Below, in pieces: positions 9,557-47,016 of a stretch of DNA of 52,756 bases. The stretch lies in the IMG/VR virus record IMGVR_UViG_3300018063_000016, positions 1 to 52,756 of that record. The stretch is one strand, 5' to 3'. The notes under the pieces are model-generated. The model searched no databases, was not told the DNA's origin, and saw only the letters and a program-made list of their open reading frames with translations. Position 1 is the first letter of the stretch. Each line of letters begins with the position of its first letter. This DNA is from a virus. Its lineage: Duplodnaviria; Caudoviricetes. A program made the translations under genes and the position numbers.

Positions 9557-9569
9557 GAGGGAGAACACC

Positions 9570-11666
9570 ATGTCAGACCTAGTCGCAGAAGAAAACTGGC
9601 AGCGCTTCAACTACGCGCTGACCCGGGGGCATCGCAACTACACCGAGCAGGCGCAGCTATGCGAACGCATGTACCTGGGCGGGGGCCGGCAGTGGAGCCC
9701 CGAGGACAAGGCCGTGCTCGACGAGCAGAAGCGCCCGGCGTACGAGTTCAACGAGATCCTGCCGAGCATCAACAGCGCCATCGGTCACCAGCTGCACAAC
9801 CGCATGGACATCACCTTCAAGCCGCGCGGGGGCGACGCCGACCAGGCGCGCGCGGACACGTTCGCCAAGGTGACGATGCAGATCGCCGACAACACGCACC
9901 TGCACTGGAAGGAGACGGAGGTTTTCGGCGACGGGCTCATCCAGCAGCGCGGCTACTTCGACGTGCGCATGGAGTTCGACTCCAACATGCAGGGCAACCT
10001 CCAAGTAACGGTGCCCGACCCGCTCGACATCATCCCCGACCCCGACGCCAAGACGTACGAGCCCGAAGGGTGGGCCGATGTGCTGTGGACGCGCTGGCTC
10101 ACGTACGACGAGGTTGAGGGCAACTACGGCAAGAAGGCGCGCCAGGCCGTCGAGCAGCGCTACAGCAGCAACGAGGATGCGGACTGGGGCGACTCGGGCG
10201 ACGACTCGGGTGCTGCGCGCAACAAGTTCGGGGATGCCGCGTTCGCCTCGGGCGGGTTCGATGCGTTGTACCGCCAGGGCAACGTGCAGCGCGTGCGCAT
10301 CATCGACCGGCAGAAATGGGTGCGCTCGATGACGCAGTGCCTGTTCTACCCGCGCACGGGCGACCTGAAGGTTGCCGAGAACCTGTCGACGCCGGTGCTG
10401 ATGCGCGAGCTCGAGCAGGGCGCGATCCGCACGAAGGCGATGCAAAAGCGCGTGCGCTGGACCGCCTCGACGATGGACATCGCGCTGCACAACGAGTGGA
10501 GCGAGTACAACGGCTTCACGATCATTCCGTACTTCGCGCTGTTCCGCCGCGGCCAGACGATCGGACTCGTCGACAACGCGATCGGCCCGCAGCAGGCCAA
10601 CAACAAGGCGCTGAGCCAGTTCGTGCACATCGTCAACTCCGCGGCCAACAGCGGATGGATCGTCGAGGAGAACAGCCTCGTCAACATGGACAGCGCCGAG
10701 CTCGAGCACAAAGGCGCCATGACCGGGCTCGTGCTGGAGTTCAAGAAGGGCAGCGCGGCCCCGCAGAAGATCCAGCCCAACCAAGTACCGCAGGGCGTGG
10801 ACCGACTCATCGAGCTGACGCGCAACGCGCTCAAGAACGTCACCGTGCCCGATCCGATGCGCGGCATGGACGGCGCCGACACGTCGGGCGTCGCACGCCA
10901 GCACGCGCAGTTCGCCTCGCAGCAGCAGATCGGCTTGCCGCTCGACAACCTCGCGCGCACGCGCCACCTGCTGGCGGAGAAGTTCCGCGACCTGATCCAG
11001 CAGTTCTACACCGACGAGCGCGTGATCCGCATCACCGAGACGGACTTCGCCACCGGCGAGCCGATCGACGCGTCGGTCACGATCAACCAGATGGACCCCA
11101 TGACTGGGGAGTACGCCAACGACCTGACCGTGGGCGACTACGACGCCGTCGTCACCGAGCAGCCGGCCGCCGTCACCTTCGAGAACTCGCAGTTCCAGCA
11201 GGCCCTTGCGATGCGCAAGGAGGGCGTCGCGATCCCCGACTCGACCGTGGTGCAGCACAGCTCGCTCACGCGCAAGAAGGACGTGCTCGAGGAGATGGCC
11301 CGCAACGCCGCCAACAGCGGCGACCCGCTGGCCGCCGCCAAGGCCGAGCTCATCAAGGCGCAGACCGTCAAGACGCAGAACGAGTCGGTCAACGTCAGCG
11401 TCGAAGGCATGTTCAGCGCCACGCAGGCCGCCAATCAGATCGCCGCGGTGCCGCAAGTCGCACCGCTGGCCGATCAACTGCTCAAGTCGGCCGGGTTCAT
11501 CGACATGGACGGGCCGCCGATCGTGCCGACCGTGCCCGAGGGCGTCATGCCGGGCGCGATTGACGTACAGGAAAACACGTCACCGCTGTTCCCCGCGCGT
11601 ACACAAAATCCTGGTGAAGGTTTGATGCATGGCATCGAAACGATTGACCAAGGAGTGCCTCAATGA
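9570..11666 (+). CDS. portal protein (P22-like)
   Basis: ~700 aa after terL; YLGGGRQW, RPAYEFNEILP, IIPDPDA, NKALSQ motifs; GAGGGAG SD. Confidence 0.88.
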   Translation: MSDLVAEENWQRFNYALTRGHRNYTEQAQLCERMYLGGGRQWSPEDKAVLDEQKRPAYEFNEILPSINSAIGHQLHNRMDITFKPRGGDADQARADTFAKVTMQIADNTHLHWKETEVFGDGLIQQRGYFDVRMEFDSNMQGNLQVTVPDPLDIIPDPDAKTYEPEGWADVLWTRWLTYDEVEGNYGKKARQAVEQRYSSNEDADWGDSGDDSGAARNKFGDAAFASGGFDALYRQGNVQRVRIIDRQKWVRSMTQCLFYPRTGDLKVAENLSTPVLMRELEQGAIRTKAMQKRVRWTASTMDIALHNEWSEYNGFTIIPYFALFRRGQTIGLVDNAIGPQQANNKALSQFVHIVNSAANSGWIVEENSLVNMDSAELEHKGAMTGLVLEFKKGSAAPQKIQPNQVPQGVDRLIELTRNALKNVTVPDPMRGMDGADTSGVARQHAQFASQQQIGLPLDNLARTRHLLAEKFRDLIQQFYTDERVIRITETDFATGEPIDASVTINQMDPMTGEYANDLTVGDYDAVVTEQPAAVTFENSQFQQALAMRKEGVAIPDSTVVQHSSLTRKKDVLEEMARNAANSGDPLAAAKAELIKAQTVKTQNESVNVSVEGMFSATQAANQIAAVPQVAPLADQLLKSAGFIDMDGPPIVPTVPEGVMPGAIDVQENTSPLFPARTQNPGEGLMHGIETIDQGVPQ

Positions 11667-15121: not shown

Positions 15122-16225
15122 ATGTCATTGACCAACTTCGCTGCGCTCACGTCGCAGCAAAAACTCGTGTGGAGCCGCGACGTCTGGAGCGCCGCCCGCG
15201 ACATGATGTTCATCAAGAAGTTCACTGGTACCGACGAGAACAACGTCATCCAGCGAATCACCGAGCTCACGAAGACCGAAAAGGGCGAGCAGTGCATCAT
15301 GCACTTGGTTGCCGACCTCGTTGAAGACGGCGTCATCGGAGACAACGAGCGCGAAGGCAACGAGGAGGCGATGCAGTCGTACGCGCAGGTCATCAACATC
15401 GACCTGATCACGCACAGCGTACGCAACAAGGGCAAGCTCGCCGAGCAGAAGACGGTCATCAAGTTCCGCGAGATGGGCCGCGACCGCCTGGCCTACTGGC
15501 TCGCCAACCGCGTCGATCAGCTCGCGTTCCTGATGATGTCGGGACTCGCGTTCAGCTACAAGAACAACGGCGCCACGCGCACCGGCTCGCCGTTCCCGAA
15601 CCTGTCGTTCGCCGCCGATGTCGTCGCCCCCTCGAGCGCCCGCTCGCTGATGTGGGACGGCACCGCCCTGGCCACCAGCGCCACGGGTTCCGTCACGAGC
15701 GCCTTCGTGCCCTCGTACAAGATGATCGTCGACCTCGTCGCGTACGCCAAGGAGCACTACGTCAAGCCGCTCATGAGCGGTGGCAAGGAGTACTACTGCC
15801 TGTTCGTGCAGCCCGGTACCCTGGCCGCGCTCAAGAAGGACGCTGACTACCAGCGCGCCGTCGTGGGCGTTGCGACGAAGTCGGGCACCGACTCGCCGTG
15901 GTTCACCGGCGCCACCGTCACCATCGACGGCGTCGCGATCCACGAGCACCGCCTCGTGTTCCACACCAAGGGTGCCGCATCGGGTGCCAAGTGGGGCGCG
16001 GGCTCGGCGATCAACGGCACGCGTTCGCTGCTGTGCGGCGCGCAGGCGCTCGGACTCGCAGACCTGGGCGCTCCCGAATGGAATGAAAAGGAGTTCCAGT
16101 ACGGGAGCCAGCAGGGCATCAACATCGACAAGATGTTCGGCCTGCTGAAGTCGAAGTTCTATTCGATCTACGACGGCAGCTCGCAAGACTTCGGGATCGT
16201 CACCTGCGACCACTACCTGCAGTAA
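15122..16225 (+). CDS. major capsid protein (N4 gp56/DUF4043-like)
   Basis: MSLTNFAAL..IQRITELTK..EGNEE..IDLITHSVR..IDGVAIHEH..GAQALG; follows scaffold. Confidence 0.9.
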   Translation: MSLTNFAALTSQQKLVWSRDVWSAARDMMFIKKFTGTDENNVIQRITELTKTEKGEQCIMHLVADLVEDGVIGDNEREGNEEAMQSYAQVINIDLITHSVRNKGKLAEQKTVIKFREMGRDRLAYWLANRVDQLAFLMMSGLAFSYKNNGATRTGSPFPNLSFAADVVAPSSARSLMWDGTALATSATGSVTSAFVPSYKMIVDLVAYAKEHYVKPLMSGGKEYYCLFVQPGTLAALKKDADYQRAVVGVATKSGTDSPWFTGATVTIDGVAIHEHRLVFHTKGAASGAKWGAGSAINGTRSLLCGAQALGLADLGAPEWNEKEFQYGSQQGINIDKMFGLLKSKFYSIYDGSSQDFGIVTCDHYLQ

Positions 16226-29600: not shown

Positions 29601-32600
29601 ATGTTCGCTGACCTGATCCCCGGCGACGGCGAGCAGCCGTCCGGCATGTTCGACGACCTGATCCCTGGCGCGAAGGCCAAACCCGCGCCGAGCTCGGGCA
29701 TGTTCGACGACCTCGTGCCGGCCGCGGCCGAGCCGGGTTTCGTCCCGACCATCAAGCGCACCGGCGGGCAGATGCTCACCGGGGTCGCGCGCGCGATCGA
29801 CGACATCACCGGGCCGAACGTCGTCACCGAGAAGATCCGCGACACCGGGCAGGGGATCGTCGACCGCAATCCCGCCGGCATCACGAGTCTCGGCGACGTG
29901 GTCGAAAAGCCGTGGCTGACGGTCAAGGAGTCGGTCGGGCAGATGGTCCCGCAGATCGCTGCCGGCGTTCCCTCGCGCATGGCCGGCGCTGCACTGGGCG
30001 CCAAGATCGGCGGCCAGGCCGCGGGCGGGCGCGGTGCACTGATCGGCGGCGCGATCGGCGGGCTCGCCCCGATCTTCGTGCAGGAGTACGGCGGCATCCG
30101 CGACGAGCAGATCGAGGGCGGCCAGGAGTCGATCCCGCGCGCGCTCGGCGGCGCCGTCGCGGCCACCGCGCTCGAGCGCCTCGGTCCGGAAGGCCGGATC
30201 ATCTTCAAGGGACTGAACCCGGTAGCGCGCACCGGCAAGGAGATTGCCGCGCAGGCCGGGCGCGACGTGCTCGTCGAGGGCGCCACCGAAGGGGCGCAGT
30301 CGGTCATCGAGCAAGTCAGCGCGTTCAAGGACCCGCTGGACCCCGCCAGCCTCGAGGAGACGGCGCTGTCGTCGATCATGGGCGGCGTCGGCGGGGGTGT
30401 CGTGGGCGGTGCGCACGCCGCGCTCAGCTCCGCGCTGGCGCCGGCCGACGTTTCACGGGGAACGTCGGACACGCCGCCACCCGCCGCACCCGCCGCACCG
30501 GTGCCACCCGTCGAGCCCGTTGCGCCCCCCGGGGATTCAAGTTCACCAAGTTCACAACGTTCACCGGGCGATCCGCTGCGCGACCAGGCGCTGCCCCCGG
30601 CCGGGCCGCTGTCCAAGGCGGTCAACATCGGCATCGAGGGCGAGGCGCAGCAGGCCGACACCGGAGCGCCCACCCCCGCGCCGATTAGCGGGGCTATGGC
30701 GGGCGTGCCGCCGGCGCCGGTACCTGCACAGGGCGAGGGCGACGATCGTGGCAAGGCGGCCGACGTAGCCCCGCCGGCACCCGTTTTCGTGCCCCCGCAA
30801 ACCCTGCCGCCGGCGTCCATCGATCCCGACCTCGCGCTCGACCGCATGCGCCGCACCAACGCGGCGTACGAGGAGATCGTCAAGGAGCGCGATCAAGCGC
30901 AACCGCCGCCGCCCCCGCCCGGTCCCCAGGTCGCCGATGTACTCGACCCGACCGGTAAACCTTTCCGAACCCCGCTGCAGGCGCGGCGCGCGGGCGCGAA
31001 ACAGGAGTTCCCCGACGAGTGGGCCATCGCCCAGGTCGACGGCGGGTACGTGCTGCGCGCGCGCGGCGTCGACAAGGGAGTGGGCGATGTTGCTGGTGTG
31101 CCTGCAGGAGCTGGTGCAGTACGAGGCGATGACGGAGGACGAGGCGATGGTGCTCGACCACTTCGCGAGGCTCCCCAGGACCTCGCCGCAGCGCCGGCGC
31201 TGCCCGCTGGAGTTGCTGGTGAAGTTCCAGCAGTGTTGGAAGCTGGCGCAGATGGACGAGTTGCTGATGACCCGGCACTGAGCGCGCCGCCGGCGCCCGC
31301 TACGATCGACCCCGCTGCCGCCCTGGTTAGTCCCGTTTCAACCCCGCAGGGGCCACAAACGGATTTGCTGGGCCAGGACGGCAGCAACCCGCCGCCGTCA
31401 GGCCCGATCACGCGCGCCGTGGCGGCGCTGCCTGCGACCCCTGCGACCATCGCAGGTGCGACCATCGCACCCCCTGCGACCATCGCGCCCACGGTGGACG
31501 AACGTACACCGACGCCGGCGTACGACTTCGACACCACCTTCCCGACGCCGCAATTCGAGGAGTTGGCGCGCGTCGGCCGCCTGTCGGTCTTCGAGGGCAT
31601 CGACGACATAGACATGCCCGGCGCCCTGGCCGAGTGGCATCAGGATGTCGCGCAGACCATCGGCCACGGCCAGAACACCGCCCGGGCCGACCTCGACCTG
31701 GCCGACGCCGGCGCCGACGCCACCGGCAAGAAGCTGACCCCCAAGCAGATCAAGGGGCTGCGCGAGTCCGCGCGCCAGTCGATCGACATCAACCGCGGCG
31801 AGCTCGACGACTACGCCGGCGAGTTCGGGCTCGACGCGGCCGACGCGTTCACGCGCTACGTCGCCCCCGAAATCGACGCGCTCGAGCAGCGCGCCGCGCC
31901 GGCGGTCACGCTCGACGCCAACGCGCACCAGGCCGCGGCATCGCCCACCAACGGCAAGCCCGAGCCGACCCGCGGGCAGATCGAGGCCGGAAACGCGGAG
32001 TTGGGGCACGACAACACGACGTTCCCGGGGCTCGACCTGTCATTCGAGAACCCGGCCGGCTCGGTGCGCGAGGACAAGGCCAACGTTCCGCCGAAGTGGC
32101 GGACCGTCATGGAGCATCACTATGGCTTCGTGAAAGGCAGCGTCGGAGCCGACAAGGACCACGTCGATGTGTTCGCGAAACCCGGTACCCCGGAGGGACA
32201 CGCGGGCCCTGTTTTCGTCGTCGATCAACAGCACCCCGATGGGGGGTTCGACGAAGCGAAAGTGATGCTAGGCTTCAACGACGAAGCCGAGGCGCGCACC
32301 GCCTACCTGTCGAACTACGAGCCGGGCTGGCAGGGGCTTCAGTCGATCACGCCGATGGCGTTTGACGCGTTCAAGCAGTGGGTGTTCGACAAGAAGGCAA
32401 CGCGCAAGCCCGCAGCTCAGTGGAGCGGCAATGGCAGGGAAGCCCCGAACGGAACGTCACGGTCTGAGCAAGACGCCGATGTACCGTCTTTGGCAGAACG
32501 TGAAGGATCGTTGCCTCAACCCGCGCAACCCGTACTTCCACAACTACGGGGGCCGGGGAGTGCAGCTTTGCCCGGAGTGGCGGGACAGCTTTCTGGCGTT

Positions 32601-35600
32601 CCAGAAGGCAGTCGGTCCTCGACCAAGTCCACGACATACGTTGGACCGCAGGGAGAACGACGGCCACTATCAGCCGGGCAACGTGCGGTGGGCGACAAGG
32701 AAGGAACAAGCGCACAACATGCGCAAGAACCGACTGCTGACGTTCCAAGGAAGGACGCAGACACTGACGGCCTGGTCGGAGGAACTGCGCCTGCCGACCG
32801 CGACGATCTACAACCGGCTGCAGCGCAAGGGGCTGAGCGTGGAGAAAGCGCTCAGCCTGCCGCGGGGCAAGTACACCTACAGGCATCGACAACCAAAGTT
32901 CGCCCCGGCGGCAAGCGCACCCTAGCCGATCGCCGCGCCGAGGCCGCAGATCAAGCGAACGCGGAAATACAAGCAGTCAGCGCGCAGACTGCACAGTCTG
33001 CCGGCACAGCGCTTGACGCGCAGCGCGCCGCCCAGGTTGCCCCAAGTTCCGCCCAGGTTGCCCCAAGTGGCCCCATCCAGCAGGTACCGAACGAGCCGGG
33101 CGTCGGCTACGTGCTGCCGTCGTTCGTTACCGCGCAGCAGACCGGCGGCAAGCGCACCCTGCAGGACCGTCGCGACGAAGTGAAGGCCGCGCAGACCCTG
33201 CCCGCACCATCGGGCGGCCTGTTCGCCGAGTGGAACGGCCAGCGCCACGCCGTCGAGTCGATCGAGGACGCGCAGCGCAAGTGGGATGCGTTCCGGCTCG
33301 AGGCAGTCAAGCAGGGCGCTGGCGCCAGCGCTGTCGGCGATGGCGTGCGCGTGGTCGACGCGCAGGGCAAGCACGTCGCGAACATCTCCTACAACGGGCG
33401 CGCATGGACCCCCGAGGGGAAGCCGATCGAGGCACCGAATACAGGAATTCATGAAGTCACTTCCACAAAACCGGAAGTCCCCGATGCCGCGAACGAGGGT
33501 GCGAGCACTGTTGCCGCAACTCCCCCAACGGAACAAACTCCAACACCAGAGGCCCCCGCAAATGATCCCGCCGCTGCAATCCCTGCGCCTGCGCTCGATA
33601 AGCCGCTGGCTGACGGACGTGTACCCGAAGGAGTACGCGAGCTCGACCCAGTCCGAGGCGCTGCAAGCCCGCGCGACGAGCCTGGACGAGCAGATGATCG
33701 AAACCTTCGAGGAAGCGGACAGCGCGCTGATGCATCGCCTGATGCGGGCGAACAAGTGGGGGACGGAGGAAGGGCTGCAGACGTACAACACGGATCGGAT
33801 GGTCCTGTGGCAGCAGGTGTGCAGCGACTACCTGCCGACACCAAGCGAGGACGAGACTTCCGAGCCACCCCCGCCGACCTCGAGCGAAGCGGAAGCTGGT
33901 ACGACACCGCCCGACGCAACGTCGACCTGATCGACCTCGCGCGCAAGATCGACGCCGAGAAGCGCCCGGCCACGCCGGCCGAGCAGCGCGAGCTCGCCAA
34001 GTACGTGGGCTTTGGCGCCGGCGAGATCCGCAACAAGCTGTTCCCGATCCCCACCGAGTACGACCGCCAGCGCGAGCCGCAGCGCCTGGTTTGGCCCTCG
34101 CGCGTGTACGACGAGAACTGGCGCGCGCTGGCCGAGCGCATCGACGCGCTGCCGCGCGAGTGGCAGGAAACCGTCCTGCAATCGACGCAGTACGCGCACT
34201 ACACCAGCGGCAACATCGTCGCGTCCATCTGGAGCGGCGTGCAGCGCCTGGGCTTCACCGGCGGCAAGGTGTTCGAGCCCGGGCACGGCATCGGCTCGTT
34301 CGCGATGCTGATGCCCGACGCGCTGCACAAGGGCAGCAAGTACACCGGCATCGAGTTCGACGGGCCGACCGCGCTCATCAGCCGGCTGCTGTCGCCGCAG
34401 CAGAACATGCTGCACGACGACTTCACCAAGCGCCGTGTGCCCAAGGACTACTTCGACATCGCCATCGGCAACCCGCCGTTTGCGAAAACGAAGATCGTCG
34501 CCGACCCCGAGTACGCGAAGCTCAACCTGTCGCTGCACGACTACTTCTTCGCCAAGGCCATCGACCGCGTGCGTCCGGGCGGGCTGCTCGTGTTCGTCAC
34601 CAGCCACTACACGCTCGACAAGCAGACCGACAAGGCCCGCAAGTACCTCGCCGAGCGTGCCGATCTGCTCGGCGCGATCCGCCTGCCGCAGACCGCCTTC
34701 AGCGACAACGCCGGCACCAAGGTCGTGACCGACGTGATCTTCCTGCGCAAGCGCGCACCCGGGGAGGCAAGCGCGGGCCCCGCGTGGCAGGGCGTGACGA
34801 AGATCGACACCAAGGACGGCCCGGTGGGCGTCAACGAGTACTTCGCCGCGCATCCCGAGATGGTGCTCGGGCAGCAGCGCCTGTCGGGCCACCGCGACGA
34901 CCGCGACCGCTACATCAGCGGGCTGCGCAGCGACGGCGAGTACACGGTCGTCTCGTACGACGACAGCGCCGCCGAGCTCGACGCGAAGTTCGCCAAGGCC
35001 GTCGAGCAACTGCCCGCCAACGCCTACTCGCCGCTGCAGCAAGACAGCGCCACTGTGAAGCGCGAGACCGCGCGCATCGACTTCGACCCGAAGGTCAAGC
35101 GCGAGGGGGTCGTGTACCTGGCCGACGACGGCACGCTGATGCGCGTCAAGGACGGCACCGGCAAGGCGCTGGCCGACGAAGTGAAGCTGTCCGACAAGGA
35201 CGCGCAGTGGTTCAAGGGCTATGTGGGCATCCGCGAGCTCGTGCAGCAGGCGCGCGCCGCGCAGTTCGTCGACGCCGACTGGGAAGGCGCGCTGAAGAAG
35301 CTGAACAAGGCCTACGACGCGTTCCGCAAGGCGCACGGGCCGCTGCTCGACTTTCGCGTGCAGGTCCGCAAGTCCACCGACGACGAGGGCAACGTCGTCG
35401 AAACCGCGACCCGCGTCTACAAGAATCGCCGGCTGTTCCGCGAGGACTACGACGCGGCCGTCGTGACCTCGCTCGAAACCGAGACCGAGGCCGGCGACAT
35501 CGTCAAGGCGACGTTCCTGAAGGAGCGCACGATCGGCAAGCCGGTGACGCGCGACGTGAAGACCATCGGCGACGCGCTGGCGGTCTCGCTGGACGAAACC

Positions 35601-38600
35601 GGCAAGCTCGACCTCGACGACATCGGGCAGCGCCTGAACCTCACCCGCGACGACACCATCGAGGCGCTCGGCAACCAGGTCTACCGCACCCCGCAGGGGC
35701 AGTGGCAGCTCGCCGACGAGTACCTGTCGGGCAACGTGGTCGAAAAGCTCGCCGAAGCGATGGACGCTGCGGCCGCCGACCCCGCGCTCGAGCGCAACGT
35801 CGAGGCCCTGAAAGCGGTGCAGCCCGACAAGCTCGGCCCGTCGCAGATCACGGTCAAGCTCGGCACGACTTGGGTGCCCGCCAAGCACGTCGACGTGTTC
35901 GCCAAGGTGCTCGAAGCCGGGGACGTCACCTTCGACCACAAGACCGAAACCTGGCAGGTTGAGGGCTCCACGTCGCGCTGGAAGGGCGGCACGGCTTCCG
36001 AGTACGGCACTGCGCTGCGCTCGCCGTCGTGGATTCTCGAAGCGGTGCTCAACAGCCGCGTCATCAAGGTCGAAATCCTCGACAGCGACAGGAAGATCGA
36101 CCGCGAGCGCACCGAGAAGGCCACCACCGCGGCCAACGAAGTGGCGCGCAAGATGCGCGAGAAGTTCAAGTCGTGGGTGTGGACCGACACCGACCGCGCC
36201 GTCGAGCTCGTCGAGCTCTACAACGAGCAGTTCAACAACATCGCGCCGCGCGCCTTCGACGGCTCGCACCTGACGCTGCCCGGCGTGTCGCTGCGCTACA
36301 AGCTGCACCCGCACCAGCTGCGCGCCATCTGGCGGCAGATCCAGACCGGCAACGCCTACCTCGCGCACGCGGTGGGCGCCGGCAAGACACTGGAGATGAT
36401 CGCCGGCGGCATGGAGCAAAAGCGCCTCGGGCTGATCCGCAAGCCGATGTACGTGGTGCCCAACCACATGCTCGAGCAGTTCGCCAACGAGTTCATGGAC
36501 GCGTACCCGCTGGCCAACGTGATGGTCGCCGACGACGAGAACTTCTCGAAGGAACGGCGCAAGGCGTTCGTCGCCGCGGCCACGCTCAACGCACCCGACG
36601 CGATCGTCATCACGCACAGCGCATTCGAGCGCATCGGCGTGAAGGAAGAAAGCGTCAAGCCGATCCGCGACGCGATCGTCGGCGACCTGCACGCCGCGCT
36701 GCACGACACCGGCAAGGACGAGCGCGTGAAGCGCCAGCGCCTGGAGCAGCAGATCGAGCAGACCAAGCAGCGCTTCGACAAGATCGTGGGCGCTGGCACC
36801 AAGGACTCGACGACGCACTTCGAGGACATGGGCGTCGACTTCGTCTACGTCGACGAGGCGCACACGTTCCGCAAGCTCGACTTCACGACCAACCAGCAGA
36901 TCAAGGGCATCGACCCCACCGGGTCGCGCCGCGCGCTGGACCTGTACGTGAAGACACGGTTGCTCGAAGCCCGGCGCCCGGGCCGCTCGATGGCGTTCGC
37001 CTCGGGGACGGCGGTCACCAACACGATGGGCGAGCTCTACACGGTGATGCGCTTTTTCGCGCAGGCCGAGCTCGAGCGCTCGGGCATCTCGACCTTCGAC
37101 GCGTGGAGCCGGCAGTTCGCCGAGTCGGTGACGGCGCTCGAAGCCAACGCGGCCGGCGTCTACGAGCCGGTCACGCGCTTCGCGAAGTTCGTCAACATCC
37201 CCGAGCTGATGAGCCGGGTGCGCATGTTCATGGACGTGCTCAACTCGGAGCACCTGGGCGCGCTCGTCGAGCGCCCCGACCTCGAGGGCGGCAAGCCGAA
37301 CCTCGTGGTGGTGCCGGCCACCCTCGCGCTGCAGCGCTACATGAGAACGGTGCTCGAGCCGCGCGTCGCCGCGTCGCGCGCGTTCAGGCAGCGCCCGGGG
37401 CACCCCAACCCCGACCCGATGATCGCCATCATCAGCGACGGCCGCTTCGCGTCGCTCGACCCGCGGTTCTTTGGCGCCGAAGTCAAGGCGGACACGCCGA
37501 CCAAGCTGACCGAGATGGGCGATGCCGTGGCCGCCGAGTACAAGGCGACCGCCGGCAACTCCTATCAGGACGTCGACGGGCGCGACGAGCCGGTCAAGGG
37601 CTCGACGCAGATGGTGTTCTACAACCTCGGGTTCGGCCAGGCGAGCCAGACCAACCGCGGCTTCAACGCGCGCACCGCGTTCACCAAACGCCTCGTCGAG
37701 AAGGGCATCAAGCGCGAGCACATCACGTGGTTCGACGACGCCGACTCGGACGCCAAGAAGGAAGCGGTGTTCAAGGCGATGCGCGCCGGTCAGATCCGCG
37801 TGCTGATCGGCTCGGCCAAGAAGATGGGCACCGGCGTCAACGTGCAGAAGCGCCTGTCGATGCTGCACTACTTCGACGCGCCCTGGTACCCGGCCGACAT
37901 CGAGCAGCCGCACGGCCGCATCCTGCGCCAGGGCAACCAGAACCCGGTCGTGCGCATCAATTGGTACACGACCAAGGGCTCGTACGACTCGACCATGTGG
38001 GACATGGTCGCGCGCAAGCAGCGCTTCATCGATCAGGCGTTTGCCGGCGACAAGACGCTGCGCACGATGGAGGACCTGAGCGAGGCGTCGCTGTACGAGC
38101 AGGCCGCCGCACTCGCCTCGGGCGACCCGCGCGCCATCCAGCTCGCCGGGCTGAAGCAGGACGTGGAACGCCTGGAGCGCTTGCAGGCCGCGCACGCGAG
38201 CGAGCAGATCAGCGTGAAGTGGGCGGTACAGACCGAGCAGTCGCACGTCGCCTCGCACACGGCCGAGGAAAAGAAGCTCGCCGCGGCGTTCAAGGCGATC
38301 GGCGAGCGCTACGTGTCGTGGGACGGTGGCAAGGTCGGCTCGGTGCACTACGCCAAGCACGGCGAGTTCGGCGAAGCCCTCAAGCGGGCCTTCAACCGCG
38401 TCGCCCTCGAGCGCACCGGCGACGACAGCAAGGCGTGGACGCAGCTCGGCAGCATCGAGGGCATGCCGATCAAGATGCGCCCGTACATGAACAACAAGGA
38501 CAAGCCCGAGGGCTTCGTCGTCTACCTCGACCTCGGGCCGCTGAGCGAGCACATCTTCAGCTCGGACGGCCAACTGCCGCCGGACACCAACACCGTCGCC

Positions 38601-41600
38601 CTCGCGCAAAACCTGTTCCGCCCGCTCAATGCGATCGAGGGCAAATTGGCGCAGGCGCGGGCCGGCATCACGCGCGCGGACGCCGAGCTCGTGCGGCTCA
38701 ACAAGAAGCTCGGCGCCCCCTTCGAGTACACGCAGGAGCTCGTCGAGAAGTACGCCGATCTCAAGCGGCTCGAGGACTCGCTGAAGGACGACGGCGACAC
38801 GGCGAAGAAGGCGGCCGCGGGCGGCGTGCGCGAAAGCGAGGCGATCGAGAAGTGGGCGCGCGAAACGGGCGCGATCACGCCGCCGTTCCGCCGCGACGAC
38901 GAGGACGCCGGGGCCGGGCTCCCGGCCGACGTGCTGCGCAAGCACGTGCGTGCGATAGCAGCACAGTGGGCCAACGCCCCGCGCGTGTACGTCGTGGGCG
39001 GGCTCAACGACGCGATGGTCCCGCAGGCCGTGCGCGACGAGGACAAGCGCCAGCGCGAGGGCAAGGCCAAGGGCGACCCGCAGGCGTTCCAGTTCGGCGG
39101 CGCCGTGTACCTCGTGGCCCCGCAGATCGCGAACACCGACCAGGCCACGCGCGCGCTGCTGCACGAAGTGCTCGGTCACGCCGGGCTGCGCGGCACGTTC
39201 GGCAAGGACTTCGCAGTACTGCTCGACGCTATTGCGAAAATGCGAAAGGCCGACCTCGAGGCCGCAGCGCAGCATTACGGACTCGACCTTGCCAACGAGG
39301 CCGACCGGCGCATCGCTGCCGAGGAAGTGCTCGCCAAGATGGCCGAGACGCAGCCTACGCTCGGGTGGGTGCGCAAGGCGATCGCCGCCATCCGCTCCTG
39401 GCTGCGCAGCGCGGGCTTCAAGCTCGAGCTCACCGACGACGAGATTGTTCGCGAGCTGATCCTGCCGGCGCGTGCGTTCATCGAGCGCGGTACGCAGCGC
39501 CCCGACGCCACCGACACCCCGGCATTCAGCCGCAGCGGCGAGTTCCTCGACACGATGCGCCAGGCCGCCACCAAGCGCGGGCTGTCCAACCTCATCGCCG
39601 ACCTGTTCAACAAGCAGCCCGGCACCTTCAATTGGTGGCATCGGTCGGTGGGAACGCAGTTCCACAAGGCACGCGTGAATGCGGAGTTCCGCCCGGTGTA
39701 CGAGGGCGCGCAGGACTTCATGCACGACACGTCCGCGTTCGCCCAGGACGCGGCCGAGTACGCACCGAGCCTGCTCCCGCAGCTCAAGCAGTTCAGCGAC
39801 ATCTGGCGCCCGATCGCGCTGTCGGCCGCCGACGCCAAGGCGCTCGCGCCGGCGGTGTTCACCGGCACGCTGACCGACACCATCTACGGCGCCGGCGAGC
39901 TGGCCAGCCGCTTCGGGTTGAACGCCAAGCAGATCGGCCAGTACGAGCAGTTCCGCGCCGCGACCGATCGCTCGCTCGACACGCTCGTCGCGAGCGAAGT
40001 CGCGCGCTACCTCGCGGCCGACTCGAGCATCCCGCGCGCCTTCAAGGACATGGTGTCTGACGGCGACGTGGGGCGCTTCAAGGGGCTCGTGACGCTGTAC
40101 CTACAGAACAAGCTCGCCGAGGCCGACGCCGAGCTCGCGCGCGTGCGCCTGGCCAACCGGCGCGAGCTGGCGGCACTGCACGCGCGCCACCGCGAGGAGC
40201 GCGCCGCGGTGCGCGCCGGCGGCATGCTGTCGATCGAGCAGCGCCTCGAGGACGAGCTCGACGCCATGAAGGCGCAGCACGAGCAGGACCTCGGGCAAGC
40301 GCAGGCCGCGCGCGACAAGGCCGAGACGGTGCGCGCCGCGGTGGCCACCAAGTACGAGAAGGTCGACAAGCTGAAACGCGAGGGCTACGCGCCCCTGATG
40401 CGCTTCGGCAAGTACGCGGTGCACGTGACCGAGACGAACGCGGACGGCGAGGAGGAGACGATCCACTTCTCCCTGCACGAAAGCCAGCGCGAGGCCAACG
40501 CCCTGGCGCGCACGCGCCGCGAGCGGCGCACCCCCCGCGAGCACGTCTACCAGAACGAGATGCCGCAGGAGACGTACAAGCTGTTCAACGGGCTCAACCC
40601 GGAGACCGTCGCGCTGTTCGCCGAGCTGTCGGGCATGGAGCAGACCGACGCCATGCAGGAGTACTTGAAGCTCGCGATCGCCAACCGCTCGGCGCTCAAG
40701 CGCCTGATCCACCGCAAGGGCACGCCGGGCTACTCCGAGGACGCGAGCCGCGTGCTGGCCGCGTTCGTGACGTCCAACGCGCGGCAGTCCTCGCTGAACC
40801 TGCACATGCACGGGCTCGACGCGGCGATCGCCGACATGGAAAAGCGCCGCGTCACCGGCGGCGTCATCGACGAGGCGATCAAGCTGCGCGACTACATCAA
40901 GCACCCGCAGGAGGAGGCGCGCCACGTGCGCTCGCTGCTGTTCGTGCAGTACCTGGGCGGCTCGGTCGCGTCGGCGCTCGTGAACATGACGCAGCCGCTG
41001 ACCATGACGTACCCGTACCTCGCGCAGTGGGGCGGCGCGGTGAAGGCCGCGGCGCGCGTTATGCAGGCTACGAAGCAATCCCTGCATAGGCAGACCGGCG
41101 CACTGGGCGACGCACTGCACCGCGCCGAGCGCGACGGCGTCATCCAGCCGCAGGAAATCCACCAGCTGCAGGCCGAGGCAACGCGCGGGCTCGGCAGCAA
41201 CCAGGCCATACGCCGCGTGCTGTTCGCGTGGGGGAGCTTGTTCTCGCTGGCCGAGCAGTTCAACCGCCGCTCGACGTTCATCGCCGCGTGGAACACCGCC
41301 ACCGCCGAGGGCATCGCCAACCCGTTCGACTTCGCCATCGAGGCCGTCGAGCAGACGCAGGGCGTCTACAACAAGGGCAACCGCCCCAACTGGGCGCGCG
41401 GCGCGGTGGGCGCAACGATCTTCACCTTCAAGCAGTTCAGCATCAGCTACGTGGAGTTCCTCAAGCGCCTTCCGCGCAAGCAGCAGATGCTCGCGCTCGG
41501 GGTGCTGATGCTGGCCGCCGGCGTACAGGGCCTGCCCGGCGCCGACGACCTCGACGACCTGCTCGATACGCTGTGGCAGGCGCTCGGCTACGACACCAAC

Positions 41601-42296
41601 ACCAAGCTGGCCAAGCAGCGTTTCCTGACCGAAGTGTTCGGCGCTGGCGGGGCGGACTTCATCCTGCACGGCTTCAGCGCGCTTCCGGGCTTCCCGCTCG
41701 ACGTGAGCGCGCGCATGGGACTGGGCAACCTGATCCCCGGTACCAGCCTGCTGCTCAAGTCGAACATCCGCAAGCAGGACGAAGTACTCGAAGTACTCGG
41801 GCCCGCCGGCGGCATGGCGCGCGACGTGGCGCGGGGCATCAGCGACGGCACCCCGAGCAAGTTCCTGCCCACCGCGTTCCGCAACATGGGCAAGTCGGCC
41901 GACATGATCGACACCGGCTGGTACCGCGACGACCAGGGGCGCAAGGTGCGGCCCACCGACGAGACGGACGCCTTCGTCAAGTTCCTGGGCTTCCAGCCCG
42001 CGCACGTGGCGCGCGAGTCGCGCATGCTGCACCAGGCCGACCAGCAGAAGAACCTCGCCAAGGTCACCGAGGACGAGATTGCCGACAAGTGGGCGCGCGG
42101 GGTGGCCGAGAAGGACGCCGACACGGTGACCGAGGCGCGCAAGCAACTCGCCCAGTGGAACCGCGACAACCCGGGCACGCCCATCCGCATCTCGCCGCGC
42201 CAGATCCGCGGCCGGGTGCAGGACATGAACCGCACGCGTGAGCAAAGGTTCCTGCGCTCTACACCCAAGGAGTTGCGCGGCACAATCCTGCAGTGA
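29601..42296 (+). CDS. giant DarB-like polyvalent virion protein: InPase, N6-adenine MTase, SNF2 helicase, zincin-like peptidase, PLxRFG domain
   Basis: MFDDL repeats; ENPAGS..HYG..GADKDHVDVF..FDEAKVMLG; FEPGHGIG and NPPF; HAVGAGKT, VDEAH, GRILRQGN; HEVLGH..EEVLA; GYAPLMRFG. Confidence 0.92.
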   Translation: MFADLIPGDGEQPSGMFDDLIPGAKAKPAPSSGMFDDLVPAAAEPGFVPTIKRTGGQMLTGVARAIDDITGPNVVTEKIRDTGQGIVDRNPAGITSLGDVVEKPWLTVKESVGQMVPQIAAGVPSRMAGAALGAKIGGQAAGGRGALIGGAIGGLAPIFVQEYGGIRDEQIEGGQESIPRALGGAVAATALERLGPEGRIIFKGLNPVARTGKEIAAQAGRDVLVEGATEGAQSVIEQVSAFKDPLDPASLEETALSSIMGGVGGGVVGGAHAALSSALAPADVSRGTSDTPPPAAPAAPVPPVEPVAPPGDSSSPSSQRSPGDPLRDQALPPAGPLSKAVNIGIEGEAQQADTGAPTPAPISGAMAGVPPAPVPAQGEGDDRGKAADVAPPAPVFVPPQTLPPASIDPDLALDRMRRTNAAYEEIVKERDQAQPPPPPPGPQVADVLDPTGKPFRTPLQARRAGAKQEFPDEWAIAQVDGGYVLRARGVDKGVGDVAGVPAGAGAVRGDDGGRGDGARPLREAPQDLAAAPALPAGVAGEVPAVLEAGADGRVADDPALSAPPAPATIDPAAALVSPVSTPQGPQTDLLGQDGSNPPPSGPITRAVAALPATPATIAGATIAPPATIAPTVDERTPTPAYDFDTTFPTPQFEELARVGRLSVFEGIDDIDMPGALAEWHQDVAQTIGHGQNTARADLDLADAGADATGKKLTPKQIKGLRESARQSIDINRGELDDYAGEFGLDAADAFTRYVAPEIDALEQRAAPAVTLDANAHQAAASPTNGKPEPTRGQIEAGNAELGHDNTTFPGLDLSFENPAGSVREDKANVPPKWRTVMEHHYGFVKGSVGADKDHVDVFAKPGTPEGHAGPVFVVDQQHPDGGFDEAKVMLGFNDEAEARTAYLSNYEPGWQGLQSITPMAFDAFKQWVFDKKATRKPAAQWSGNGREAPNGTSRSEQDADVPSLAEREGSLPQPAQPVLPQLRGPGSAALPGVAGQLSGVPEGSRSSTKSTTYVGPQGERRPLSAGQRAVGDKEGTSAQHAQEPTADVPRKDADTDGLVGGTAPADRDDLQPAAAQGAERGESAQPAAGQVHLQASTTKVRPGGKRTLADRRAEAADQANAEIQAVSAQTAQSAGTALDAQRAAQVAPSSAQVAPSGPIQQVPNEPGVGYVLPSFVTAQQTGGKRTLQDRRDEVKAAQTLPAPSGGLFAEWNGQRHAVESIEDAQRKWDAFRLEAVKQGAGASAVGDGVRVVDAQGKHVANISYNGRAWTPEGKPIEAPNTGIHEVTSTKPEVPDAANEGASTVAATPPTEQTPTPEAPANDPAAAIPAPALDKPLADGRVPEGVRELDPVRGAASPRDEPGRADDRNLRGSGQRADASPDAGEQVGDGGRAADVQHGSDGPVAAGVQRLPADTKRGRDFRATPADLERSGSWYDTARRNVDLIDLARKIDAEKRPATPAEQRELAKYVGFGAGEIRNKLFPIPTEYDRQREPQRLVWPSRVYDENWRALAERIDALPREWQETVLQSTQYAHYTSGNIVASIWSGVQRLGFTGGKVFEPGHGIGSFAMLMPDALHKGSKYTGIEFDGPTALISRLLSPQQNMLHDDFTKRRVPKDYFDIAIGNPPFAKTKIVADPEYAKLNLSLHDYFFAKAIDRVRPGGLLVFVTSHYTLDKQTDKARKYLAERADLLGAIRLPQTAFSDNAGTKVVTDVIFLRKRAPGEASAGPAWQGVTKIDTKDGPVGVNEYFAAHPEMVLGQQRLSGHRDDRDRYISGLRSDGEYTVVSYDDSAAELDAKFAKAVEQLPANAYSPLQQDSATVKRETARIDFDPKVKREGVVYLADDGTLMRVKDGTGKALADEVKLSDKDAQWFKGYVGIRELVQQARAAQFVDADWEGALKKLNKAYDAFRKAHGPLLDFRVQVRKSTDDEGNVVETATRVYKNRRLFREDYDAAVVTSLETETEAGDIVKATFLKERTIGKPVTRDVKTIGDALAVSLDETGKLDLDDIGQRLNLTRDDTIEALGNQVYRTPQGQWQLADEYLSGNVVEKLAEAMDAAAADPALERNVEALKAVQPDKLGPSQITVKLGTTWVPAKHVDVFAKVLEAGDVTFDHKTETWQVEGSTSRWKGGTASEYGTALRSPSWILEAVLNSRVIKVEILDSDRKIDRERTEKATTAANEVARKMREKFKSWVWTDTDRAVELVELYNEQFNNIAPRAFDGSHLTLPGVSLRYKLHPHQLRAIWRQIQTGNAYLAHAVGAGKTLEMIAGGMEQKRLGLIRKPMYVVPNHMLEQFANEFMDAYPLANVMVADDENFSKERRKAFVAAATLNAPDAIVITHSAFERIGVKEESVKPIRDAIVGDLHAALHDTGKDERVKRQRLEQQIEQTKQRFDKIVGAGTKDSTTHFEDMGVDFVYVDEAHTFRKLDFTTNQQIKGIDPTGSRRALDLYVKTRLLEARRPGRSMAFASGTAVTNTMGELYTVMRFFAQAELERSGISTFDAWSRQFAESVTALEANAAGVYEPVTRFAKFVNIPELMSRVRMFMDVLNSEHLGALVERPDLEGGKPNLVVVPATLALQRYMRTVLEPRVAASRAFRQRPGHPNPDPMIAIISDGRFASLDPRFFGAEVKADTPTKLTEMGDAVAAEYKATAGNSYQDVDGRDEPVKGSTQMVFYNLGFGQASQTNRGFNARTAFTKRLVEKGIKREHITWFDDADSDAKKEAVFKAMRAGQIRVLIGSAKKMGTGVNVQKRLSMLHYFDAPWYPADIEQPHGRILRQGNQNPVVRINWYTTKGSYDSTMWDMVARKQRFIDQAFAGDKTLRTMEDLSEASLYEQAAALASGDPRAIQLAGLKQDVERLERLQAAHASEQISVKWAVQTEQSHVASHTAEEKKLAAAFKAIGERYVSWDGGKVGSVHYAKHGEFGEALKRAFNRVALERTGDDSKAWTQLGSIEGMPIKMRPYMNNKDKPEGFVVYLDLGPLSEHIFSSDGQLPPDTNTVALAQNLFRPLNAIEGKLAQARAGITRADAELVRLNKKLGAPFEYTQELVEKYADLKRLEDSLKDDGDTAKKAAAGGVRESEAIEKWARETGAITPPFRRDDEDAGAGLPADVLRKHVRAIAAQWANAPRVYVVGGLNDAMVPQAVRDEDKRQREGKAKGDPQAFQFGGAVYLVAPQIANTDQATRALLHEVLGHAGLRGTFGKDFAVLLDAIAKMRKADLEAAAQHYGLDLANEADRRIAAEEVLAKMAETQPTLGWVRKAIAAIRSWLRSAGFKLELTDDEIVRELILPARAFIERGTQRPDATDTPAFSRSGEFLDTMRQAATKRGLSNLIADLFNKQPGTFNWWHRSVGTQFHKARVNAEFRPVYEGAQDFMHDTSAFAQDAAEYAPSLLPQLKQFSDIWRPIALSAADAKALAPAVFTGTLTDTIYGAGELASRFGLNAKQIGQYEQFRAATDRSLDTLVASEVARYLAADSSIPRAFKDMVSDGDVGRFKGLVTLYLQNKLAEADAELARVRLANRRELAALHARHREERAAVRAGGMLSIEQRLEDELDAMKAQHEQDLGQAQAARDKAETVRAAVATKYEKVDKLKREGYAPLMRFGKYAVHVTETNADGEEETIHFSLHESQREANALARTRRERRTPREHVYQNEMPQETYKLFNGLNPETVALFAELSGMEQTDAMQEYLKLAIANRSALKRLIHRKGTPGYSEDASRVLAAFVTSNARQSSLNLHMHGLDAAIADMEKRRVTGGVIDEAIKLRDYIKHPQEEARHVRSLLFVQYLGGSVASALVNMTQPLTMTYPYLAQWGGAVKAAARVMQATKQSLHRQTGALGDALHRAERDGVIQPQEIHQLQAEATRGLGSNQAIRRVLFAWGSLFSLAEQFNRRSTFIAAWNTATAEGIANPFDFAIEAVEQTQGVYNKGNRPNWARGAVGATIFTFKQFSISYVEFLKRLPRKQQMLALGVLMLAAGVQGLPGADDLDDLLDTLWQALGYDTNTKLAKQRFLTEVFGAGGADFILHGFSALPGFPLDVSARMGLGNLIPGTSLLLKSNIRKQDEVLEVLGPAGGMARDVARGISDGTPSKFLPTAFRNMGKSADMIDTGWYRDDQGRKVRPTDETDAFVKFLGFQPAHVARESRMLHQADQQKNLAKVTEDEIADKWARGVAEKDADTVTEARKQLAQWNRDNPGTPIRISPRQIRGRVQDMNRTREQRFLRSTPKELRGTILQ
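30445..30468. promoter_or_regulatory. parS-like palindrome
   Basis: CCGACGTTTCACGGGGAACGTCGG; core resembles GTTTCACGTG(A/G)AAC. Confidence 0.4.
31087..31281 (+). CDS. nested 64-aa protein in the +1 frame of the giant gene
   Basis: AAGGGAG SD; almost all codons end in G/C while host-frame GC3 collapses. Confidence 0.65.
   Translation: MLLVCLQELVQYEAMTEDEAMVLDHFARLPRTSPQRRRCPLELLVKFQQCWKLAQMDELLMTRH
32431..32925 (+). CDS. nested HNH homing endonuclease in the +1 frame of the giant gene
   Basis: GGAG SD; HGLSKTPMYRLW..RC..NYGGRGVQLCPEW..TLDRRENDGHYQPGNVRWAT..QAHN. Confidence 0.85.
   Translation: MAGKPRTERHGLSKTPMYRLWQNVKDRCLNPRNPYFHNYGGRGVQLCPEWRDSFLAFQKAVGPRPSPRHTLDRRENDGHYQPGNVRWATRKEQAHNMRKNRLLTFQGRTQTLTAWSEELRLPTATIYNRLQRKGLSVEKALSLPRGKYTYRHRQPKFAPAASAP
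33562..33930 (+). CDS. nested TnpV-like helical protein in the +1 frame (alternative start 33451)
   Basis: AGAGG SD; GC3-rich; RWLTDVYPKEY..SEALQARATSLDEQMIETFE..QVCSDYL resembles the TnpV pattern. Confidence 0.65.
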   Translation: MIPPLQSLRLRSISRWLTDVYPKEYASSTQSEALQARATSLDEQMIETFEEADSALMHRLMRANKWGTEEGLQTYNTDRMVLWQQVCSDYLPTPSEDETSEPPPPTSSEAEAGTTPPDATST

Positions 42297-46020: not shown

Positions 46021-47016
46021 TCAGGCTGCCGCCTTCGGCTTCGTGTGCGGGACTTTTCGCCCGATCTTGCCCACGGCGTCGGCCAGTTTGCGCGCCGTGA
46101 GGTGGCTGTAGCGCTTCGTCGAGCGCGGGTCACGGTGCCCGAGTACGGTGCCGACCGTGTAGAGATCCTCGCCGGCGTTGACCATCTCCGAGGCGGCGCT
46201 GTGGCGCAGGTCGTGGATGCGCACGTGCTGCAAGCCGACCCGGCGCCGAGCTCTGTCGAACCCGTGCTCGAGCGCGTTCTTGTCGGCCGCCAGGGGCAGA
46301 TAGCGCAGCAGGGTGCGCAGCTTCGGGTGCACGGGCAGCGCGCGCACGTCGTCGTTCTTGGTGTCGCGCAGCAGTAGCAGGTCCCCGTCGACCTCGACGC
46401 GCTGCAGCTCGCCGAGCCGCATGCCGGTATAGAACGCCGCGCGGACGAGCACGCACACGTCGCGGCGATCGGCCGCGCGCGCTAGGCGCAGCATGTCGCG
46501 TCGGTCGGCGTACACGTGGCGCTCGTTGCGCACCTTCGGCAACTGCATGCGCGACGTCGGATCGTGCTTGCTGATGCCGTGGTGCTTCCACGCGTGCCTG
46601 CAGGCGGCTTTGAGACACGCGAGCCGGTTGCGGATGGTGGCCGGTGCCACCGGGCGCCCGCGTTCCCCCACGGGGTTGTCGCGCACCGCCTTCGCGACCT
46701 CGTGCAGCGCACTGAGCGGCTTGCCGAGGTACGCCCACGCGATCGCCGCAAGGTGCTCGGCCGTGGCCTTGAACGATTTGAGCTGCGTCTTGTCCTTCAG
46801 GTACAGGACAACGGCCTCGTCGATCAGTCGGTCGTCCTCTTGTACGCCAGTCGCAATGGCGTAGAGGCGTGCCGATTCGGTGCGGTCGAATTTGTCAGCC
46901 TGGGCTTGACTCCAGCCGCGCGGAAGCAGGCGGTTAGCTCGCTTCCGCTCACCTTCAATGTAGCGGTCGAACTCGTAGCGCCAGCGGTGATTCCGCTTGT
47001 CCCATCGGATCGACAT
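46021..47016 (-). CDS. int: tyrosine integrase
   Basis: YTGMRLGE, TKN, HDLRH, LGH, RYSH catalytic motifs. Confidence 0.95.
   Translation of the reverse strand: MSIRWDKRNHRWRYEFDRYIEGERKRANRLLPRGWSQAQADKFDRTESARLYAIATGVQEDDRLIDEAVVLYLKDKTQLKSFKATAEHLAAIAWAYLGKPLSALHEVAKAVRDNPVGERGRPVAPATIRNRLACLKAACRHAWKHHGISKHDPTSRMQLPKVRNERHVYADRRDMLRLARAADRRDVCVLVRAAFYTGMRLGELQRVEVDGDLLLLRDTKNDDVRALPVHPKLRTLLRYLPLAADKNALEHGFDRARRRVGLQHVRIHDLRHSAASEMVNAGEDLYTVGTVLGHRDPRSTKRYSHLTARKLADAVGKIGRKVPHTKPKAAA

Follow-up and report, generated by a model that had tools for sequence, protein, structure and literature searches.

The phage DNA analyzed here, record IMGVR_UViG_3300018063_000016 of IMG/VR (Duplodnaviria; Caudoviricetes), is 52,756 nt long and is referred to at its full length as the window. 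Our analysis indicates that a 12.7-kb open reading frame (ORF) in the window encodes one DarB-like polyvalent protein and that three stretches in the N-terminal third of this ORF are dual-coding, each harboring in the +1 frame a smaller ORF, named n1, n2 and n3, with its own Shine-Dalgarno (SD) motif, ATG and stop codon; we put the probability of this reading at about three in four. The comparisons with other phages described below indicate that n2 and n3 are genuine genes with origins of their own, and that the giant frame running across such genes is kept open by codon choice. The features concerned are listed in Table 1.

The giant ORF was found to proceed through 4231 codons without a stop, as a preliminary description of this DNA had stated, and its product matched PHROG 10089 ('DarB-like antirestriction') with E = 0. 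Pfam matches above the cut-off were obtained for InPase (1e-40) and Eco57I (1.7e-7), and SNF2-rel_dom, Helicase_C and ResIII were detected below their curated cut-offs. The protein is large and multidomain, combines an N6-methylase and a SNF2-type helicase with conflict-related domains, and is encoded in the setting of a virion gene module, the terminase, portal and major head genes lying upstream; in these characters it is a DarB-like polyvalent protein. The DarB core showed 67-69% identity to relatives (alignment A4), and in giant-frame alignments across loci its conserved N-terminus (...DFRP..GLTREGSWFDTAKRN...) starts at the end of the n3 core.

The ORFs n1, n2 and n3 lie in one common frame, +1 relative to the giant frame, and were located exactly where the preliminary description had placed them, together with the SD-like motifs that it had read. 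A sliding scan of the G+C content at each codon position (GC1, GC2 and GC3) agreed with its claim that the strong third-position bias moves to the +1 frame over these intervals. The giant-frame GC3 is about 0.95 over most of the gene and 0.44-0.58 in the three intervals, where position 1 of the giant frame, which is position 3 of the +1 frame, reaches 0.85-0.89. The switch was sharpest at n1; directly 5′ of this ORF (30975-31086) the giant-frame pattern is intact, and 3′ of it GC3 partly recovers. The number of 50-codon windows carrying the shift signature was 401 in the giant gene versus 71 across the remaining 31 gene-like ORFs in the window, where they were found mostly at 5′ ends overlapping an upstream gene. 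Over the overlaps the giant-frame peptide is low-complexity filler, as had been described: the residues G, A, D, R and P together make up 0.75, 0.52 and 0.66 of it at n1, n2 and n3, respectively, versus 0.38 elsewhere, and I, L, M, F, W, Y and C make up 0.07-0.09 versus 0.23. Codons in the -1 register of a GC3-rich nested gene mostly start with G or C, and this register is therefore nearly stop-free and reads as a linker rich in G, A, D, R and P. A weak fourth drop of the giant-frame GC3 was also observed at 30429-30623 (GC1/2/3 0.80/0.72/0.71), in a proline/serine-rich linker over which the +1 frame reads as arginine/proline-rich junk.

Table 1. Features of the window, with the G+C content at the three codon positions where it was computed.
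Feature	Position	Strand	GC1/2/3 (frame)	Remarks
Giant ORF, DarB-like polyvalent virion protein	29601-42296	+		4231 codons without a stop, 12.7 kb
Remainder of giant gene			0.66/0.43/0.95 (own)	
n1 SD motif	31074-31080	+		AAGGGAG, read in the sequence; 6-nt spacer to ATG
n1, nested +1 ORF	31087-31281	+	0.63/0.34/0.97 (+1)	ATG to TGA, 64 aa
n2 SD motif	32422-32425	+		GGAG, read in the sequence; 5-nt spacer to ATG
n2, nested +1 gene	32431-32925	+	0.61/0.50/0.78 (+1)	ATG to TAG, 164 aa; family annotated HNH endonuclease
Low-GC3 leader 5′ of n3	33411-33561	+	0.67/0.62/0.50 (giant)	Giant frame reads as T/P/E/A-rich linker
n3 SD motif	33548-33552	+		AGAGG, read in the sequence; 9-nt spacer to ATG
n3, nested +1 gene	33562-33930	+	0.59/0.45/0.89 (+1, core)	ATG to TGA, 122 aa; helical core of ~95 aa, then variable tail
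InPase domain of giant protein	31977-32384	+		aa 793-928, PF18823, E = 1e-40; folded module directly 5′ of n2
DarB core	33846-42296	+		N6-methylase, SNF2-type helicase, C-terminal region
Eco57I-like N6-methylase in DarB core	~34419-34667	+		
SNF2-type helicase in DarB core	~36345-37934	+		
Large terminase gene	7472-9556			
Portal gene	9504-11666			
Major head protein gene	15122-16225			
Integrase gene	46021-47016	-		

The search of a collection of 5.8 billion proteins showed that n3 has 26 homologues of 93-106 aa (E = 1e-28 to 3e-11). In an alignment of n3 with 22 of these, the residues M1, I2, P3 and P4 were invariant in all 23 sequences, along with twelve further residues, and the invariance of M1 to P4 fixes the start of n3 at 33562. 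AlphaFold2 (AF2), given the alignment as input, predicted a protein that is helical over residues 6-90 and has a floppy tail, with a predicted local distance difference test score (pLDDT) of 85.8; the model had no match in PDB or BFVD at E <= 0.001. A tblastn search of 50,697 phage records gave no match to n3, Pfam, PHROG and NCBIfam scans gave nothing significant, and the best score of an Atlas search (0.85, TnpV) is a lead only. The n3 profile likewise had no match among Ulx, Lxc, DdrA and IddB of phage P1 or among all ORFs of five loci, and no longer or fused forms of n3 (at least 215 aa) were found. The loci encoding n3 came from three collections (26 loci, with some duplicates; locus GC 0.58-0.68), and n3 was nested in the +1 frame at 22 of them, that is, at all nine of a first set and at 13 of 17 metagenome loci; at the nested loci the giant frame continues past 1000 codons or as far as the locus ends. 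Three loci (L024, L026 and L027) carry a free-standing 175-aa form, and one (L032) is ambiguous since it lies at a contig end. In L026 the free-standing gene is located between the small terminase gene and genes for helix-turn-helix regulators, and the free-standing homologue begins at the same residues as the nested form. Given that n3 is nested at 22 loci and free-standing at three, these data indicate a gene family that is autonomous and, in most cases, nested. SD motifs of the GGAG, GAGG or AAGGAG type precede n3 in all eight aligned loci, where the upstream sequences are purine-rich. When n3 and the N-terminal 450 aa of the DarB core were submitted to complex prediction, the score was 0.00 with 'no answer', which is evidence neither way.

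Two side observations concern the n3 loci. The free-standing gene in L026 (2859-3524) has a -1 register without stops over 222 codons, very nearly the extent of the gene itself; this may be left over from nesting or may predispose to it. In addition, two viral contigs (L007 11743-12342 and L008 11740-12270) have another protein-like +1 ORF (...EWMQLLSQTRILKLLHNRFE...) about 6 kb 3′ of n3, with the same GC3 shift and with no match in Pfam or PHROG, and these giant genes may hold further nested genes elsewhere.

The second nested gene, n2, matched PHROG 3377 'HNH endonuclease' with E = 2e-49, as well as PHROGs 374, 8790, 2081 and 953, and tblastn found matches to it in 1075 phage records. Pfam, NCBIfam and PDB sequences gave no match, and an H..N..N spacing (PRHTLDR..N..GN..N) is visible in n2 by eye. 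The best matches are those of the Ralstonia phages Gamede and GP4, in which the gene also lies in the +1 frame inside an annotated DarB-like coding sequence (CDS) with the giant frame open; identity to these two copies was 49-51% in the n2 frame versus 39-40% in the giant frame. In general, the Ralstonia copies showed 49-58% identity to n2, with frame, SD motif and ATG all intact, and the GC3 of n2 is lower than that of its host gene. Comparison of Gamede with the phage Cimandef, identical to it at 99.9% of positions on one flank of the cassette and at 99.3% on the other, showed that Gamede has 714 nt with the endonuclease gene where Cimandef has a 423-nt segment that is in frame and of normal codon bias (GC3 0.89), both lengths being multiples of 3. 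The same contrast of cassette and in-frame segment was seen between GP4 and Gervaise, and patchy presence among close relatives is thus observed in Ralstonia phages for the Gamede/GP4 cassette versus Cimandef/Gervaise. The segments of Cimandef (L012 6323-6745) and Gervaise (L013) at the cassette site encode an in-frame 141-codon domain with ParB-nuclease-like motifs, to which Pfam ParBc_2 is a weak match (E = 0.023). A hidden endonuclease is marked by an endonuclease-family ORF in an alternate frame, an open host frame and no intron or intein signature, and all of these were found at n2, which looks like a putative homing endonuclease gene, a mobile and selfish-looking cassette of the HNH family.

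The junction that n3 occupies just 5′ of the DarB core was found to hold two further families of small proteins in other phages, n3R and n3E, again in the +1 frame. The n3R proteins (106-107 aa) were encoded in 40 of 40 matching phage records, 31 of Ralstonia and 9 of Burkholderia phages, always under a DarB-like feature (Bcep22 gp75 and BcepIL02 gp70 among the hosts), and their +1 frame was verified in five phages. The n3E proteins (102-108 aa) occur in Erwinia phage PEp14, Klebsiella phage SopranoGao, Pseudomonas phage Itty13 and Agrobacterium phage Atu_ph08. The genes at this junction have no separate annotated feature in the 40 n3R records or in the n3E phage records examined, which agrees with the earlier expectation that standard annotation would miss nested genes. 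In the Itty13 record (L037, MW460249.1), the DarB-like gene, open there for more than 2280 codons, faces three long CDSs annotated on the other strand; these are probably shadow ORFs antisense to a GC-rich gene.

Any relationship among the three junction families would be distant. Profile-profile comparison gave E = 0.71 for n3 versus n3R (hhalign), E = 0.034 for n3E versus n3 and E = 0.0016 for n3E versus n3R; the matches of n3E are colinear and weak, and do not establish common ancestry. In size and helical character these proteins resemble TnpV (PF14198), a small protein of Tn4451-type transposons for which a role in excision was postulated by likeness to lambda Xis (PMC3158075), the function of TnpV itself being unproven. 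The TnpV matches were sub-threshold in n3E (E = 4e-4, 3.5e-3 and 0.015; 15.7-20.7 bits) and n3R (0.045), and were seen in 2 of 23 members of the n3 family (best E = 9.7e-4); none reached the gathering score of 27 bits that membership takes, and the window's n3 had no TnpV match at E <= 0.1. Since the TnpV hits are sub-threshold and the mutual profile matches weak, n3, n3R and n3E are treated here as positional analogues that may be distant kin.

The constraint on the two frames was analyzed next to this conservation. In an alignment of eight n3 loci (92 ungapped codons) the mean pairwise nucleotide difference was 0.326, 0.285 and 0.402 at n3 codon positions 1, 2 and 3, and amino-acid identity was 0.557 in the n3 frame versus 0.442 in the giant frame, a pattern which argues that the n3 frame dominates. 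A codon of a nested gene was regarded as being in a risky context when the next codon begins with AA, AG or GA, where a T-ending codon would give a stop in the giant frame. T-ending codons were found in 0/160 risky versus 42/423 safe contexts of n3 (Fisher p = 7.8e-7), and in a control made of ordinary parts of the same giant genes they occupied 6.9% of risky contexts (176/2565). A second n3 set of eleven more distinct sequences, one of them free-standing, had 1/197 versus 78/584 (p = 8e-10). The endonuclease cassette behaved in the same way, with 0/68 risky versus 31/208 safe (p = 8.5e-5) when the window's n2, across which the giant frame is stop-free and which has 0/32 by itself, was pooled with the Gamede copy, and so did n3E, the copy of Sinorhizobium phage PBC5 included, with 0/122 versus 21/227 (p = 8.5e-5). 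The probability that the giant frame is open across a nested gene, P(open), was determined by resampling synonymous codons with each locus's own codon usage. For n3 it was 0.045-0.378 per locus, with a product of 2.4e-7 over seven loci, and in genomes with a GC3 of 0.73-0.77 it was about 0.05, yet the giant frame is open across n3 in these genomes too. For n3E, again with the PBC5 copy, the giant frame was open in 5/5 loci with a product of 3e-7. Together, these counts indicate that codon choice keeps the giant frame open.

The third ORF, n1, is an orphan. It had no match in a tblastn search of 50,697 phage records and no homologue in a word-index search or a viral contig scan; exhaustive HMMER against 1.84 billion representatives gave 0 matches, and Pfam, PHROG and NCBIfam scans gave nothing significant. 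AF2 predicted four helices from the single sequence (pLDDT 82.2; predicted template modeling score 0.63), the model had 0 fold matches in PDB, and the composition is natural-looking. We lean toward n1 being a real gene, in which case it is probably a young or fast-evolving small protein, predicted to be helical. The proposal of the preliminary description that the nested ORFs are real genes was upheld for n2, by its 1075 records, and for n3, by its 26 homologues, predicted fold and free-standing form, and found no homologue in its favor at n1. Antisense coding at n1 was considered and rejected: the antisense frame in phase with it has no stops and a high GC3, but reads as S/C/N-rich sequence and lacks a start codon. 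In Ralstonia and Burkholderia phages a further interval of GC3 shift was observed roughly at the place of n1 (L001 5338-5514, L002 ~5254-5430, L015 ~4200-4386 and L017 ~3950-4101), with leucine-rich candidate +1 ORFs of 50-60 aa and an SD motif.

Several observations weigh against the reading of one polypeptide with three dual-coding stretches. The openness of the giant frame in the window alone is unremarkable, P(open) being 0.82, 0.45 and 0.41 for n1, n2 and n3 with a product of 0.15, so that the window by itself proves nothing and the significance comes from relatives; there, the products of per-locus P treat loci as independent despite their shared ancestry, and for n3R alone the stop avoidance was not significant (p = 0.15). 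The orphan n1 is argued from composition, SD motif and single-sequence fold. For n2, the missing match to a Pfam HNH model leaves the nuclease assignment to the PHROG label and the H..N..N spacing. The leader 5′ of n3 has a low giant-frame GC3 with no known +1 gene, and the codon signal alone is therefore not proof of a nested gene. In PBC5, moreover, the junction module belongs in frame to the ORF upstream of it, and the annotation gives the core a gene of its own, so that either the single-polypeptide layout is not universal or the 2002-era sequence has an indel. Finally, the reality of n2 and n3, the conservation of the layout and the avoidance of stops are demonstrated at the level of sequence, and translation of either frame is inferred.

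The PBC5 locus (L040 5828-7061) bears on programmed frameshifting, in which ribosomes reading the giant frame would slip to the +1 frame close to the junction, giving a shorter protein with the nested module at its end. In this phage orf33 (2185 aa) terminates, in frame, in the n3E-like module, which the core frame overlaps in the -1 register over 577 nt, a layout that could be read as gag-pol-like, as a true split or as an indel. The match of n3E proteins to PHROG 938 falls at its C-terminal end because of this in-frame position at the end of orf33, and the +1 frame is open for 30-130 codons 5′ of the n3 ATG, as frameshifting would have it. The n3 ATG and the MIPP N-terminus are nevertheless invariant, all eight n3 loci and all five n3E loci have an SD motif 5-10 nt upstream, the free-standing homologue starts at the same residues, and no slippery site was noticed, though no search aimed at one was made; we therefore consider frameshifting improbable. 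Just as improbable in our estimation is that only the giant protein matters and the nested ORFs are unexpressed, decaying relics of recent insertions. Homing endonuclease genes commonly decay, n1 is an orphan and n2 is without its Pfam match, all of which would suit relics. The conservation of n3 at the protein level in its own frame, across relatives at 38-61% identity, would not, nor would the identity that n2 retains to its intact Ralstonia copies; the combination of GC3 0.97 with GC2 0.34 at n1 is a signature of current or very recent coding.

A somewhat smaller chance is left to the giant ORF being an annotation artefact in which separate genes are joined by a -1 register that is open by chance, an alternative that the preliminary description had itself raised. 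The unremarkable openness of the window and the split annotation of PBC5 at the equivalent junction are what one would expect from it. At the n3 junction it is rejected by the statistics of stop avoidance, and the giant frame is open in 22/26 n3 loci, including those of low-GC3 genomes. At the n3 stop the giant frame offers no ATG, GTG or TTG for a restart of the core, and the DarB core would thus be reached by read-through. The DarB-like gp69 of phage JC1 (4515 aa) was found to be virion-associated with 51 unique peptides (PMC9144972), which does not by itself demonstrate contiguity. As for splicing, its probability is very low. Homing endonucleases usually ride in introns or inteins, and removal of the n2 segment as a group I or II intron or as an intein would fit that habit, but nothing in 30000-35000 matched an Rfam family at E <= 1 (the absence of a known model being no proof against splicing), no Hint/intein Pfam domain was found in the giant protein, the endonuclease is out of frame and hence not an intein domain, and the avoidance of host-frame stops would be needless in a segment spliced from the RNA; the same conclusion was reached for the ShiLan element by Arsenault et al. 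(2025; PMC11855218). The claim that the genes are installed without splicing thus agrees with what was found. Sequencing frameshifts are ruled out as the cause, as the layout recurs in dozens of independent assemblies.

Under the single-polypeptide reading that we prefer, the giant frame would thread each nested gene in that gene's -1 register, and the read-through segments would probably form disordered linkers in one giant chain, the residual risk of stops being removed by selection against T-ending codons before AA, AG and GA. n2 would spread as a cassette that is tolerated unspliced since the host frame reads through it, and n3 would be an old, fixed resident of the junction just 5′ of the methylase-helicase core. 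Ribosomes initiating internally on the giant mRNA would make the n3 protein, which may work together with the DarB core, for example in folding, packaging or control. The preliminary description had viewed the linkers of DarB-like proteins as landing pads for whole genes. Exchange of the HNH cassette between near-identical Ralstonia phages bears this out in part, though what is replaced there is an in-frame folded domain and not a linker; n3-type genes are long-standing, fixed occupants of one junction and did not arrive at random.

The free-standing homing endonuclease genes of T4-like phages (nrdA/mobE, gene 39/60) split a host gene and are tolerated without splicing; there the host is made in separately translated pieces, whereas the host frame in the window is continuous. 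Out-of-frame 'hidden' HNH genes have been described in the methylase gene of mycobacteriophage ShiLan and in the helicase-methylase gene gp60 of Pacc40 (Arsenault, Gosselin and Gogarten, 2025; PMC11855218). As described there, these elements are like n2 in having an endonuclease ORF in an alternate frame and a stop-free host frame whose peptide there looks like a disordered insert, and in showing no signature of an intron or intein. Their presence among relatives is patchy, as is that of the Gamede/GP4 cassette, and the Pacc40 host gene, like that of n2, is a helicase-methylase. A gene of Tiff81 directly upstream of a helicase gene shows 42% identity to n2 (E = 2e-27) and is probably the one compared with the Pacc40 insert in the same paper. 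No ribosome-binding site was found for ShiLan and Pacc40, and leaderless GTG initiation was proposed for them, whereas n2 has a clear SD motif and an ATG. The host of n2 further differs in being a 4231-aa polyvalent virion protein of a Gram-negative-type phage, and the locus in the window shows statistical stop avoidance and has the endonuclease as one of three nested genes.

The nested ORFs of the window also resemble the Rz/Rz1 spanins of lambdoid and Bcep22-like phages, in which the inner gene lies wholly inside the outer one in the +1 frame with its own start; the embedded Rz1 class is noted for the same phage group in the JC1 paper (PMC9144972). Rz and Rz1 are, however, functional partners with both frames structured, whereas the host frame in the window is filler and the nested genes are elsewhere ordinary genes. 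Polyvalent proteins, including P1 DarB, are of the same giant, multidomain and virion-delivered build with InPase, N6-methylase and SNF2 helicase domains (Iyer et al., 2017; PMC5512222). The darB gene of P1 stands alone and is followed downstream by ulx, in contrast to the DarB-like gene of the window, which carries nested genes. The phage P1 record shows another nested gene in the Dar antirestriction operon, iddB, located inside ddrB on the opposite strand (L014 26577-26975). In term searches, 'overlapping' was absent from PMC5512222, where 'nested', 'embedded' and 'reading frame' are used for other matters, and the JC1 paper was without 'nested', 'HNH' and 'homing', its sole 'embedded' concerning Rz1. 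A literature search for genes nested in DarB-like or polyvalent genes retrieved no report, and the only paper it found on out-of-frame endonuclease insertions was PMC11855218.

As to the surroundings, the window covers a temperate phage's structural arm and has an overall GC of about 68%. Searches with n1 and with the domain at 31530-32390 as queries found no close relatives of this phage. The stretch is present in two sequencing runs with 0 differences, and both runs may be its source, whereas no RNA run was listed as containing the region; low-likeness 'joints' seen in the run comparison have sides of 20-21 letters and were disregarded. A 151-nt contig in soil-metagenome run X3 matches 33537-33687 of the window with six differences, mostly in the variable part of n3 (residues 5-29), which indicates a near relative of the window's phage in another habitat at low depth.

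The n2 part of the locus is a member of an arrangement first described in 2025, and the junction genes, the presence of several passengers and the stop avoidance set the locus apart from it. With respect to the ShiLan/Pacc40 precedent, the locus extends the arrangement to another host range, to a clear ribosome-binding site, to passengers other than endonucleases and to conservation across many phage genera. Gene callers forbid long overlaps on the same strand, and some of the phages with missed genes are studied for therapy or biocontrol. In this arrangement the same DNA serves an old folded protein and a giant host protein, and it is the host frame that pays, becoming a disordered linker, which is the reverse of classical overprinting. 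A small protein that travels with the DarB antirestriction core is a target for learning how ejected defence-breaking proteins are made or controlled. More tentatively, and with the odds in our view against it, threading in the -1 register may be a general way to build and remodel giant polyvalent proteins, with genes serving as 'linkers' that keep their own coding, and the TnpV-like small protein nested just 5′ of the core in nearly every DarB-like gene examined might be an obligatory co-translated partner of the core, as a chaperone, packaging adaptor or brake on activity, that has been missed in all annotated phages examined, including Bcep22, BcepIL02, PEp14 and the Ralstonia phages.

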